A DNA stretch of 64,000 bases from Escherichia coli. GTDB lineage: Bacteria; Pseudomonadota; Gammaproteobacteria; Enterobacterales; Enterobacteriaceae. The position numbers were made by a program. Each line of letters begins with the position of its first letter. The stretch's first letter is position 1. The DNA lies in the NCBI RefSeq assembly GCF_030013205.1, contig NZ_CP122649.1. One strand, written 5' to 3'. Of this stretch, positions 51,301 through 57,300 are shown piece by piece.

Positions 51301-54300
51301 GCTCAGTGCCTGTATTTGCAGCCTTAATCAGGATGAACGTATCACTGTTTGGTAGTGAGCGGACGTAGAGACGCTTTGCGCCTTTTCCCCGACATCCGCA
51401 GCTGATCACAGATTTCTGCCCGGACGTGTGGTGTGCTTTCTTCAGGGCCGACTGCCATCCCTTTACATACTCATCCTGTGTCTGAAATTCAGCCGAGTAT
51501 CGTTTCGTGTTTGGTTCGTCATCGTAAGCAATAAAAACTGCAAACTTCTGGCCCATGGGACCTCCTGAAATTTAAAAATACTAATAGCCTAGCCATATCA
51601 ATACTTCTTGCGCGTTGTACTCTTCCCTCTCACCCAACTCGGAAAAAAATACGTCTATGTCGCTGGCTACGACGCCATGTTTTGCAAGCTCTTGCAGAGC
51701 TCTCTGTTTTGAAATGGTGAGGTCTTCTGCTGAATCAAAATACGTCATCATTACCTCCTGATGAAGGAGTTGACTGAAGCAGGCCTTTCTCTCCCTGCCC
51801 AGGTTTTTTTCTGTGTAAAAGTTACAATATTAGTGAAATAAACCATTACGTTAACCTGCAAAATCACACAGAAGAATTACTATGATGCCGCTTCAAACTC
51901 TCCCTTGAGACGAGCCGCAACGGCGATCTCAATACGGCTTCGAAGCAAACTGGCCACGGCCGCAAATACGTCGACGATGACCGAATTGCCGAACTGGCGA
52001 TAGGCCTGGGTATCAGAGACTGGAATGCGAAAAGTAACTTTTCCCGGTTGCTCGAATCCCATAAGGCGGGCACATTCTCGCGGGGTTAAACGGCGCGGGC
52101 GCCTTGCCATATTTACAGGATCATTAAAGTCCTTTTCGCCTATGCTGTGATCCCATCCACGGTCTAGCAAAATTTCAGAGCCATCACGATAGTACCGTGC
52201 GCTGAGTGTTCTGCAAACAACTGATTTATCAAGTGGATTTACCAGTCCGAAGCCAAATCCATTACCTTTTGCCTGGTGCTTTTTAGCGTAGTTATAAAGG
52301 TACTCCCAGAGCTTTGGAGAAAGGATGTAACGGCTATCGACCTCAGCGTCCAGCAGCTCCCCAAGGGTTGGCCGTCGTGAAGGATAAAGAGCCGATACAC
52401 CACTTAACGAAAAGCCATCATGGAGCTTCAGATCGCGCCTGAATCCAACCAACACGATACGTTCCCGGTGCTGAGGCCTGAAGTTCTTACCGTCAATTAT
52501 TTTGGGGTCCTTTGATCCGTGAGCATCGCAGTCGGCAACATCGTAGCCAAGTTCATCAAGCGCTTTCATGATGATGCGGAACGTATTTCCCTTATCGTGG
52601 CTCTTCAGATTTTTTACGTTCTCAAGAACGAAAATGGCAGGCTGTTTGGCTCGGATGATCCGGGCGACATCAAAAAAAAGGGTCCCCTGGGTGTCGCATT
52701 CAAAGCCGTGTTTTCGGCCCAAAGAGTTCTTTTTGCTGACACCGGCAATACTGAACGGTTGGCATGGGAAACCTGCGAGCAAAACATCATGGTCTGGGAT
52801 GGATGCATCGATAGAAGCATAGGCCTGGTCATCCGAAACATCGGGAAGATTACTGAGTGTAATGTCCCGGATATCTGAGTTGAAATAGTGCTCAGTCTCG
52901 TCACAGTACCAGTTTGCACTGTATGTCCGGCGGGAGAACTGATTCCATTCGCTTGTAAACACGCATTTCCCGCCAATGGCGTCAAAACCACTCCGGAGGC
53001 CACCGATCCCAGCAAACAAGTCAATAAAACGGAAAAATTTCTGGTCATAGTCTGCTGGGCGTGAGGGGAGCAACGATCGAAGATAATGATATTCTTCCTG
53101 GGTTATTCGACATTCATTAACTGAACCTTTGATCTGGCGAATAAGTGATGCCCTCGACCAGTCGCTGCCGGTTGCAGCATTAAGTTGCGCAGCCAAATCT
53201 TTTACGTCATAGATACTTGCAACCTGCACCAGTAATTTATGGATAGAGGAAGGCGTCTCATCATTAAGCAATGCTGTTATTGCAGGCTCAGTTCTATCGT
53301 TGTACATCCTTACTCCATGAAATGTGATTAATTTAGGACCTCAGACTACCACGCGGTGAAAATTCAATTTTTTGTTAAAGGCCTTTATTTTCATCTCCTG
53401 AATTAAAATTTTTAATCCACTCAAATTGCCTCCGTTAACGGAAAATCGCCGAGTTTCTAATTGGTACAATAAGCGCGTCAAATCACACGACTTATTTGTT
53501 ACTACGAACCATCTAATTCAGGGAGAACGTATGACTCTGTTGAAAAAGTTACTTTTGCCGACATTAATCGTCCTTTTCCCGGCGGCAACTCTGGCTGCCC
53601 AATCGTCATTTGAAGCGAAAGTGGTAAAAATTATCGACGGGGACACAATCACCGCGCTCGATGGTCAGAATACAAGCATCAAAATCCGCTTGTACGGTAT
53701 TGATGCCCCCGAAAGTAAGCAGGCCTTTGGACAAAAGTCTAAACAAGCGTTGAGCGCCGCGATTGCTGCACAGAATATTACGGTAATAGACCACGGACCT
53801 GATATTTACGGCAGGATGCTGGGAACCATTTGGCTTGATGGTTATGACATAAACGCCTCAATGGTAGACAGCGGCTATGCATGGGTATACCGGTTTGACG
53901 GTAATGCCATCGTCCCAAACTATCTGAAATTCGAAGCTTCAGCTCAGAAAGCAGTTAAAGGCCTCTGGGTAGATCCTAATCCCGTTGCCCCCTGGGAGTG
54001 GCGCCAGCAAAACCAGAAACCTCAAAAGACGAAAAGCAGGGGGTGACCGCGATGACAAGACAGCATCCTTTATTGAAAATTGCGCTTAATAGCGATGGAC
54101 ATCTTTCGTGGCCAATTTTACCAGGAGAGACTCACCGCTGCCCAACGTGTCTGCGACACGTTACTACGGGCCCGGATGGGGATTTGGTGCATTCGATGGA
54201 GGAGGGCGGCAACGTCTGCATACCTTCAGCTTCTGTTGTTATTTCAAAGGCAATTATTGAAATGCTCAGCGCAGGCGAACGTCTCTATGTTAATCCAATC

Positions 54301-57300
54301 AAGAATGGGAATAAAACCCTAGCACCGTCATTTATCTTTCTGCATACAGACCAGCAACTCCGCCCATTTATCAATTCGGATTATCAGCCAGCCGGTGCCA
54401 GCTGGAGAAGTGATAAAGGTTTCAGGCTTGGCCTTTTCTTTATGAATGAGCGAGCCTCTAAAATTAATAAAGACCAGTTTGATTTTATTGCAGTAATAGA
54501 CCCATTGACCTTTCAGTCAGAATTTGATGCGACATGGTCCCGTGGTGAATTTGATGACCCTCTAAAGGCATTACGGTATTCAATTGTTTCTGAAAACTTG
54601 TCTTCCGTCTGGGTGAAATGGCCCGTAAAAAACCTGCAACCGAGGAAAGAAACGGTGATGGCCGATTACTGGTATGACTATTATTCACCTCATTCCCCAG
54701 CTCAGCAGGCTGCTTGCACAGCAACGGTGACTGGAATAGATGGGAATGTATCCGGCGAAACTATTTACATGCTCCAGATCGCTTTAGAGCGGTCGACAGT
54801 TGAGTACCAGCTTGTAAAATCGCTAGGGGTCATATTGCTACTGGATAATACAGGAAATTTGGTATCGGAGGCGCAGCCGCACTTTGATATAATCATCAAG
54901 GCATGCATATCGGGCGTCAGAGACTTTGTTCTTCAGAATCCTCGGACGCTGGGTTTTGAAAACAAGGTTGCATAGTTATAAAAAATCTTGCCGTTCTCAA
55001 GGCATCATTAAAAATTAAAATGAGGTATACATGGTACAAGTACTCAACACCACTGGTTTGAATTATCAACTTGAAAAAACAATCACTGAAGCTGAGGAAA
55101 GGATAATTCTCATTAGCCCATACCTTAAGCTTAGTAATCGCATTAAAGAGCTGATCGAAGATAAAAATAGACTAAAAGTTGACATCAGAATAGTTTATGG
55201 GAAATCAGAACTAAACTCTAAAGAATATGAATGGTTAACAAACCTGCCTTTTGTACGCCTTAGTTTTTGTAAAAACCTCCATGCAAAATTATATGCCAAT
55301 GAAAATCAATGTATTGTGTGCAGTCTAAACCTTTATGATTTTAGTCAGATTAATAACCATGAAATTGGAGTGTTAATTATTAAGGAGCAGGAGAAGGATG
55401 CATACACTTCATCGTTAAATGAAGCTCAGCGACTGATCAGAATCAGCACAGATAACATTCAGCCACTAACAACAGATAAAGAAACAACAGGTTCAAAAGA
55501 AAGTGAAAAAACTAATAAAGAGTCATCCGACTTCACTTCAGCCTTTCATGAAGAACCATTAACAAATCAAAATGGATTGATTACTGATTTAAATACAAAT
55601 TCAAAACTCACTTCGACAAATCTAGCAAAAAATCATAAAACTGATTTGTTATCTCTATATAAAAAATTAATCGAAGCTGGATATCTCATGGACGTAGAAG
55701 GAAAATACATATTGACTGATGCTGGCATAGCGGCAGGGGCAGAAGCCAAGCCAAATCGATATAAAAAAGGAGAAAACTATTTTCTGTGGCCTGATAACCT
55801 AGCATTATGATTTTACATCACGTACTGTGTCCCTGCGTAGCCATGAGGGACATAGAAGGGTCAATGAAAAATAGCTTGTTTAGTACTGATTCGAATACTG
55901 GGGTCACCTTTACCATCTCGCCTCACGGCCAGGGATGTAAACTGTCTGTAGAGCCTGAATATCGTCGCAAAGGAACACAAAATTACGATGGCTGGTTCCC
56001 TCGATATTACACTAAGCCACAATACGCTAAAGCAGCATTGACACGGTTTCTTGGGGAACCTGTTAATTGGTTGGATTGTAATGACCATAATTAGGGCTTT
56101 CAGACAGTTAGCCAACAAAAAAATCTTTAACTCACCAACAATATTGAGAATTACCAAATGGAAAATCTGGATGTTGTATCAGCGGTAGATTTTTACTTAG
56201 AAAAAGCATTTTATTTATTTGGATTCATAATGTTAGGTATGGCATGGCTTACTTTTCGTGCTGGTTCAACTTATCAGCATTTTAAAAATGCTGATAAGTT
56301 AGTCAGTGAAGGTAGAGGCTCAGTTTCAAGCGGTAAAGAGCCTGAAATGATCCGGCGGCTTAAGTTCCAAACATTGATCTGGTACATTGCTAATTGTGTG
56401 GTGTTAGCATTATCCACTATTGCTTTTGGGTATTTATTTTATCTTCTACACAGTTAATCAAACAATGAGAGATTTTTATTTTCTATAATCAGGTACATAT
56501 TTATTTTCTTGGAGATATTGATGAACGAAAACAATCCACTTCTGCAATCTGAACTGCTGTTTTGAATACGTTAGTGGAGGTAATGCCTATGGTATTAGAT
56601 ATCATGACTGTTTTGGCCTTTGCGTTTTTGGTTCTGTATAAAATAGCTTCACGAATCATTTCTATGTCTGGTGGTGCGATAAGGTTCTGATTTTCAGAAC
56701 CTTTTTTTAAAGTTTACTAGAGTAGATTTCATTTTGAATAAACGTAAGATACTCCTCACTTTGACTGCCTTTCCTAAATTTTTTCTGTCCTTCAAAATCT
56801 ATATCAGGTATGAAATGTATTAACTGGCTATCTTGGTAAAGTGAAAGAACGGAATTTTGATTGAGCACCTTAGAGTCCATTAATTGATAAACTGATTCAA
56901 TACATGCACCTATAAGAACATCACACAATTGCACGCTTGGGCTTTCTTTCGAATCAATTTGATAGACTTTTTTAAGGTTTAGAGGGAATGAGATAGTTGC
57001 TATCTCGGAATGTTTAAACTCTCCTTCCTTATCACAATTGATCAAAAAGTTAAGGCGTTCATTGTAAGTTAGCAGATTTTTAGAACGATCATGCTCAATT
57101 GCATACTCTCCAGAGGACATCATTTCCGTGCGAGAAATTAATGCATTTAAAATAGTAAATGAGGCATCAGTGCTAATTCCATCAGTCATGATGGCATCAA
57201 TGCAATCTGGGTGGTTAAATGCCAAAGGACCAAAAAACTCTTTTAACCTTTGCCAATCAAGCCTCCTTATTTTGCTTATTAGCAAACTCACTGAATCTAA

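Follow-up and report, generated by a model that had tools for sequence, protein, structure and literature searches.

In a 64,000-nucleotide stretch of Escherichia coli DNA (contig NZ_CP122649.1 of assembly GCF_030013205.1; hereafter the window), two adjacent genes at positions 53531–54975 encode a nuclease of the staphylococcal nuclease (SNase) type, here gene A, and a 307-residue orphan protein, here gene B. Judged from comparative sequence data, the pair is a genuine conserved operon within the IncHI clade of plasmids, and the pairing fails outside that clade. The reading that we tentatively favour is a conserved bicistronic operon of the IncHI-type backbone, whose products reside in different compartments and are co-expressed but not mutually dependent. 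The evidence leans against B as a dedicated inhibitor of the nuclease and towards a separable protein, probably one that binds nucleic acid. As it stands, the pair amounts to a hypothetical unit that is conserved but mostly ordinary, and its most interesting detail is a 13-nt palindrome at +14 of gene A, which ties the operon to a plasmid-wide motif network.

Organization and conservation of the gene pair

Gene A (53531–54046, + strand; ATG at 53531, TGA stop at 54044–54046) and gene B (54052–54975, + strand; ATG at 54052, TAG stop at 54973–54975) are separated by a 5-nt spacer, CCGCG, and the B start lies 6 nt past the last base of the A stop, as an earlier note on this DNA had described. A Shine-Dalgarno-like AGGGGG (54038–54043, + strand) falls within the last codons of A and precedes the B ATG by 8 nt. 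That note also called the genes translationally coupled. The tight bicistronic layout was borne out: A and B are adjacent, co-oriented and closely spaced in 9 loci, with spacers of -4, 2, 5, 11 and 17 nt and a purine-rich stretch preceding each, and coupling itself may fairly be inferred from this spacing.

To describe the conservation of the pair, the genomic context of 13 members of the B family was examined. For eight of them, reaching down to a profile E-value of 9e-12, an SNase gene immediately precedes B wherever the upstream sequence is long enough (L002–L014, L016 and the IncHI2 record L024), and most of these loci also keep a divergent dcm-type methyltransferase, a 55-residue gene and a DUF1173 gene. 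In L016 both flanks are entirely different, and the A–B pair is still kept. Plasmid counts, compared as totals for A and for B, are near 1:1, with a B match on 1,409 plasmids and an SNase at 60% identity or more on 1,411.

These observations (the tight junction in all IncHI-type lineages examined, the persistence of the pair in L016 and the near-equal counts) support the proposal, raised in the earlier note, that B is an inhibitor or partner of the nuclease. B would then act on the pre-nuclease in the cytoplasm as inhibitor, immunity protein or chaperone for export, and translational coupling would keep the two in fixed proportion. Barnase–barstar, Anabaena NucA–NuiA and the colicin DNase–Im pairs offer precedents, in which, as in A–B, the gene for a cytoplasmic protein comes directly after that of an exported nuclease. 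The charges of the window proteins would also fit, since IncHI1 B is mildly acidic (isoelectric point (pI) 5.9; C-terminal domain 4.8) and the mature nuclease is basic (pI 8.8). Nevertheless, we consider a dedicated inhibitor unlikely. SNase homologues occur on more than 5,000 plasmids, on at least 3,589 of them below 60% identity, far outnumbering the plasmids with any B match. An SNase homologue without an adjacent B was found in all three of the other plasmid types inspected: on a Klebsiella IncFIB plasmid (SNase 50% identity) the order is DUF1173, SNase, then an hns-like gene; on an IncF plasmid (39%) the SNase lies between finO and hha; and on an IncFII/IncR plasmid (43%) a different, 123-residue gene follows it. 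B thus does not accompany the nuclease wherever the nuclease occurs. The earlier note had named an unrelated second gene, variably present beside homologous nucleases, as evidence against its proposal, and these three loci show that pattern in part.

The converse separation is seen among the most distant B relatives, which have no nuclease nearby. P0042 and P0043 lie after an hns-like gene, and P0041 and P0049 (340–344 residues; L017 and L025–L027, Klebsiella-type plasmids) lie ~500–520 bp downstream of a parA–parB pair. On the Klebsiella plasmid NZ_AP022015.1 an SNase homologue at ~81 kb and a B relative at ~279 kb are unlinked, with a separation put at ~150 kb. Pairing is therefore not obligatory across the nuclease family, which sets A–B apart from the known inhibitor pairs. 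B also bears no sequence or fold likeness to any known nuclease inhibitor and, as a 307-residue protein with a zinc ribbon, is much larger than typical immunity proteins. What remains of the inhibitor-or-partner proposal is the conserved adjacency.

P0041 and P0049 also adjoin three 800-residue immunoglobulin (Ig)-domain genes resembling the RSP conjugation protein of R27.

A second alternative, which we regard as improbable, is that the adjacency is historical only, B being unrelated to DNA or to the nuclease (for example, with a role in partition or conjugation) and sharing a transcript with it. The Klebsiella IncHI-like B relative ~520 bp downstream of parAB, beside the RSP-like genes, argues for this, as do the syntenic backbone character of the whole neighbourhood and the weak fold evidence for nucleic-acid binding by B. 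However, the pair outlasts the loss of all other synteny in L016, and the spacing of -4 to +17 nt is kept over deep divergence, with B down to 22% identity. A zinc ribbon with an alpha/beta core, moreover, would be typical of nucleic-acid handling.

Recombination at the A/B junction

B is the fastest-evolving gene of the module. Identity to the window for DUF1173, methyltransferase, SNase and B, respectively, is 100%, 99%, 96% and 78% in L008; 81%, 71%, 74% and 52% in IncHI2 (L002); and 56%, 66%, 54% and 22% in L013. In a sliding comparison with L004 and L008, nucleotide identity falls from 94–99% to ~80% at the B start (~54100; junction 54047–54110), and synonymous divergence (dS) is two- to ten-fold higher in B (0.53–0.56) than in A (0.05–0.24). 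The drop in identity and the contrast in dS together mark a recombination breakpoint at the A/B junction, with alleles re-assorted: nucleases 97–99% identical sit beside B alleles only ~80–82% identical. Positive selection on B was considered and rejected, because the ratio of nonsynonymous to synonymous divergence (dN/dS) is 0.15–0.32 and the extra divergence is that of an older allele brought in by recombination. The same ratio indicates that B is a real, constrained protein under purifying selection.

The pI of B ranges from 4.8 to 9.0 across the family, with IncHI2 B proteins at 8.6–9.0. Acidic character is therefore not conserved, which weakens the charge argument for an inhibitor, and the idea of B as an acidic DNA mimic was rejected for the same reason. 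Taken from sequence comparison, the breakpoint, the mixing of alleles and the pI range would not be expected of a specific, co-evolving inhibitor, though binding of B to the nuclease would be compatible with them.

Three chimeric predicted proteins (P0023, P0029 and P0035) join the nuclease to B, P0029 by a frameshift read-through and P0035 by an internal deletion. They are probably assembly or mutational artefacts, at a junction prone to rearrangement.

Gene A encodes a predicted exported SNase-type nuclease

The 171-residue product of gene A (RefSeq WP_000173534.1, 'thermonuclease family protein') matched the Pfam SNase profile PF00565 over positions 1–106 of 107, with an E-value of 2.3e-22 and 79.9 bits against a gathering cutoff of 21. 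Its IRLYGIDAPE core occupies residues 52–61. In an alignment with the S. aureus nuclease, D38, R53, D58, E61 and the arginine of the YGR motif correspond to D21, R35, D40, E43 and R87 in SNase numbering. By this alignment, the five catalytic and Ca-binding side chains that were checked are intact. The position of SNase T41 is Ala in gene A; T41 presumably ligates Ca through its backbone, so the substitution should not matter.

The N-terminus, MTLLKKLLLPTLIVLFPAATLAAQ, contains a KK n-region (residues 5–6), a hydrophobic core and a T-L-A/A-Q cleavage site, delimiting a predicted signal peptide of about residues 1–23 (53531–53599, + strand). The Kyte–Doolittle maximum over 12 residues is 2.37 (residues 7–18), compared with 0.52 for gene B, and similar N-termini are present in all gene A homologues compared. 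The cleavage site fits the small-x-small pattern, and the product is predicted to be Sec-exported. The profile match, the core motif and these signal-peptide features confirm the secreted thermonuclease-like gene of the earlier note.

Gene A resembles the staphylococcal nuclease/thermonuclease family in its fold-level sequence match, in the equivalents of the five residues above and in its N-terminal export signal. It differs from the S. aureus-type enzyme in lying on a Gram-negative plasmid backbone, in lacking a long propeptide and in its basic C-terminal tail, and it scores far under the NCBIfam equivalog cutoffs for EcnA (63.9 against 180) and NucI (43.8 against 250). The ParB nuclease of the RP4/RK2 parCBA operon is another SNase homologue that belongs to the backbone of a broad conjugative plasmid. 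Its operon partners are the resolvase ParA and ParC, whereas the partner here is an orphan zinc-ribbon protein and no resolvase is adjacent. No published work relevant to an IncHI thermonuclease was found in the searchable literature. Its sequence makes the nuclease an unremarkable representative of a known family on a known plasmid.

Gene B encodes an orphan protein with a predicted zinc ribbon

Gene B is annotated in RefSeq as 'hypothetical protein' (WP_005046389.1). Upstream GTG starts, which would lengthen the open reading frame, are not used by B, because the family alignment begins at the Met of ATG-54052. In agreement with the earlier note, the 307-residue product has no signal peptide, as its low hydropathy maximum also indicates, and it is predicted to be cytoplasmic.

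Searches of Pfam, NCBIfam and PADLOC with gene B gave no match and PHROGs nothing usable, and PDB sequence searches, with the single B protein or with the family profile, returned noise only. Homologues number 23 among 5.8 billion clusters. A profile search recovered 24 representatives among 1.84 billion proteins, several of them fragments and none with a family name, and two word-indexed searches for wider homology returned only the same ~25 clusters. All family members with a named organism or record are enterobacterial, on plasmids or large assemblies.

The CPTC...H cluster pointed out in the earlier note was found at residues 30–33 and H46, with C56 in addition, and C30-P-T-C33...H46...C56 would form a zinc ribbon (C30/C33/H46/C56; 54139–54219, + strand). 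The four ligands are kept in most family members, including P0041 and P0049, and are lost in P0019, P0020 and P0033; the whole ribbon is missing in P0042 and P0043. An AlphaFold2 model of B, built from 24 sequences (predicted local distance difference test score, pLDDT, 78.5), shows a three-stranded ribbon bearing the Cys/His ligands, then an alpha/beta domain that extends to about residue 190, a linker of low confidence at 193–219 and a four-stranded sheet on a long helix at 220–298. Foldseek comparison of the model with the PDB gave no match at an E-value of 0.001 or better, and the comparison with BFVD gave one unnamed 184-residue phage protein (E 1.2e-3).

A lead to the possible function of B comes from CoiA, in which a CoiA_N zinc ribbon is followed by a PD-(D/E)xK nuclease domain. 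The ribbon of the distant member P0041 gave sub-threshold matches to DUF7828 (1.6e-4; 21.8 bits against 25.7), DUF7830 (3e-3) and CoiA_N (E 0.079; 12.9 bits against 26.3); the window B protein matched none of these profiles, and no family member reaches the Pfam threshold. P92, W118, S120, K122 and G123 are conserved in the alignment. After the ribbon, the family pattern consists of a helix in which a Glu is mostly conserved, followed by P-(S/D) and, last, W-x-S-x-K-G. Inspected by eye, the alignment would place P92-S93 and S120-x-K122 at the positions of the PD-(D/E)xK motif, a correspondence drawn from predicted secondary structure, and Asp occurs at the first site only in P0024, P0039 and P0041. 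The pattern may thus be read as a PD-(D/E)xK core with its acidic residues replaced, as a lead and not a classification. B differs from CoiA in this replacement of the acidic catalytic residues in most members. B probably binds nucleic acid and has a core of degenerate restriction-endonuclease-like or CoiA-like type.

A 13-nt palindrome recurs across the IncHI backbone

The 13-nt motif AAAAGTAACTTTT occurs in gene A in reverse orientation (53544–53556, − strand; reverse complement AAAAGTTACTTTT), at +14 of the gene and within codons 5–9 of the signal peptide, where the earlier note had placed it. The window contains 8 sites at one mismatch or fewer, compared with 0.15 expected, at 470, 4224, 7814, 12658, 19652, 27345, 52030 and 53544. 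In its palindromic form, AAAAGT(A/T)ACTTTT, the motif has 41 copies at one mismatch or fewer on pHCM1, the IncHI1 plasmid of Salmonella Typhi CT18, all of them backbone copies, with none inside the resistance transposon blocks. Twenty-two of the 41 lie between annotated genes, as tallied against incomplete annotation tables, and a further five are no more than 80 nt away from a start codon, that of htdO, trhU, the nuclease, trhH or one hypothetical gene.

The copy in gene A appears to be maintained at the level of DNA. Codons 6–9 read AAG TTA CTT TT(G/C) in all six IncHI-type lineages compared (IncHI1, L008, IncHI2, L003, L011 and L013), although the flanking residues and codons differ among them and conserved residues across the gene keep their codon in only 35–55% of cases between the more diverged lineages. 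This codon identity within diverged surroundings points to selection on the DNA. In L016 the peptide KKLLF is kept with other codons, and the motif is absent there.

Two copies lie upstream of one gene annotated as a 'DNA-binding protein' and one beside a second such gene, and both products (WP_000108723.1 and WP_001281654.1) carry a ParB helix-turn-helix (HTH) domain. Plasmids of the motif-bearing groups (IncHI1, IncHI2 and Klebsiella IncHI-like) each encode two copies of these proteins, and the palindrome is absent from the IncF loci examined. From this pattern, the palindrome looks like a putative operator of a plasmid-wide regulator, for which we infer the two orphan ParB-HTH proteins to be the best candidates. 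KorB, with its 13-bp OB operators on IncP plasmids, is what we take to be the closest analogy: the likeness extends to a 13-bp palindrome found dozens of times in the backbone, often in promoter regions and sometimes within genes, and to sites upstream of the ParB-HTH genes themselves. The IncHI palindrome differs in sequence from the OB operators, and no relevant occurrence of it was found in the searchable literature. B itself was also considered as the binder of the motif; this was unsupported, as there are motif-bearing loci without an adjacent B (L021) and B relatives on motif-free plasmids (L018–L020).

Plasmid context and neighbouring genes

The stretch at 53300–55200 is 100% identical to pHCM1. 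The same holds for 30 or more further large plasmids, from Escherichia, Salmonella, Klebsiella, Citrobacter and Enterobacter, and 282 plasmid records match the stretch in all. Based on these matches, the region of the nuclease and B is IncHI1 backbone. The window and pHCM1 are not collinear throughout: from window position 470 to position 53544 the coordinate offset shifts by ~4.5 kb, and the last 200 bases of the window have no match in pHCM1. The window would therefore be a related IncHI1 plasmid or a rearranged copy relative to pHCM1.

Divergent from gene A lies a Dcm-type C5 cytosine methyltransferase gene (51880–53307, − strand; 475 residues; PF00145 and PF18284; an orphan methyltransferase in PADLOC), which is syntenic with the A–B pair in most lineages and holds its own copy of the 13-nt motif at 52030–52042. 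Beyond it, a DUF1173 gene (50261–51556, − strand; 431 residues; PF06666, E 1.2e-42) is the most persistent neighbour of the nuclease: at the Klebsiella plasmid locus L021 (2851–3800), which has neither the methyltransferase nor B, DUF1173, though split, is still divergent to the nuclease. The region between the methyltransferase start at 53307 (− strand) and the nuclease ATG (53308–53530; GC content 41%) is common to the nuclease side and the methyltransferase operon and presumably holds the promoter of the nuclease and B. No strong sigma-70 consensus was found on its + strand.

Downstream of B, a phospholipase D (PLD)-family gene (55031–55810, + strand; 259 residues; Nuc/DrmC-like; RefSeq 'phospholipase D family protein') matched PLDc_2 (E 2e-7), with weak matches to DrmC and PDC-S69. 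GC content drops from 46–48% to 34–38% right after the B stop (from 55000), and no other lineage examined has the PLD gene after B. This GC break and variable presence led us to reject the gene as a third member of the operon; we read it, from its sequence context, as a later insertion outside the conserved unit.

The low-GC block at 55000–57400 (34–38%) holds the PLD gene, two small open reading frames, one of them hydrophobic, and a DUF3800 gene abutting an IS10 copy. The C-terminal region of the PLD protein matches the PADLOC candidate PDC-S69. An IS10 RNA-OUT at 57386–57455, at the end of the block, is the sole structured RNA found in the region. The block may be an accessory defence-type islet specific to IncHI1.

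That A and B themselves form a two-gene defence or exclusion system, with the nuclease attacking DNA in the periplasm as it arrives from phages, plasmids or transformation, and B serving as sensor or effector in the cytoplasm, would suit a backbone rich in nuclease and methylase genes (the orphan dcm gene, HNH endonucleases, the PLD gene and a Shedu gene further on), the match of the SNase domain to the PADLOC candidate SNc+LTD (E 2.9e-11) and the fast evolution of B, but it is very unlikely, given that B matches no PADLOC-DB 2.0 model, that the SNase match is at the domain level only, that dN/dS gives no sign of an arms race, that the genes are fixed in the backbone and not in a variable island, and that exported SNases are common on plasmids without B.

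Discussion

On the favoured reading of a backbone operon with separable products, transcription would start from the 223-bp region common to the divergent dcm/DUF1173 operon, and a plasmid-wide regulator, with the ParB-HTH proteins as candidates by analogy with KorB/OB, would modulate it through the 13-bp palindrome at +14 of A. Ribosomes ending at the A TGA would re-initiate at the B ATG using the AGGGGG in the 3′ end of A. The pre-nuclease would be exported and cleaved near Ala22/Ala23, and would then break down DNA without specificity, either outside the cell or in the periplasm, which is rich in Ca.

SNase activity depends on Ca at millimolar levels, and E. coli tolerates the enzyme in its cytoplasm, which also weighs against a dedicated inhibitor: the nuclease would need none, because SNase-type enzymes would be inactive at cytoplasmic Ca levels.

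B would remain in the cytoplasm and bind zinc through C30/C33/H46/C56. Its alpha/beta core would resemble that of restriction endonucleases or CoiA, but with other residues at the acidic catalytic positions (N81, S93 and S120) and with K122 kept, so that B would bind nucleic acid and not cut it. The C-terminal sheet-plus-helix domain may bear a weak resemblance to SpoVG.

A bolder proposal, which we put forward as a long shot, is that B represents a novel type of cytoplasmic protein that partners exported SNase-type nucleases. Such a protein could be a zinc-ribbon inhibitor or holdase; alternatively, it could be a catalytically dead CoiA-like DNA-handling factor that, together with the periplasmic nuclease, controls DNA entry or exit in IncHI conjugation. 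The operon would belong to an undescribed KorB-like regulon read through the palindrome in the codons of the signal peptide.

Plasmids of the IncHI1 and IncHI2 types are vehicles of multidrug resistance in typhoid Salmonella and of mcr-1 or tet(X4) in E. coli, and a large part of their backbone has no annotation. The A–B pair is present on ~1,400 sequenced plasmids, and the backbone map would gain from knowledge of whether the exported DNase and its co-expressed partner influence plasmid establishment, biofilm behaviour or competition with other DNA. An operator-like palindrome kept by codon choice inside a coding sequence provides, in addition, a handle on a possible plasmid-wide network of the IncHI group.

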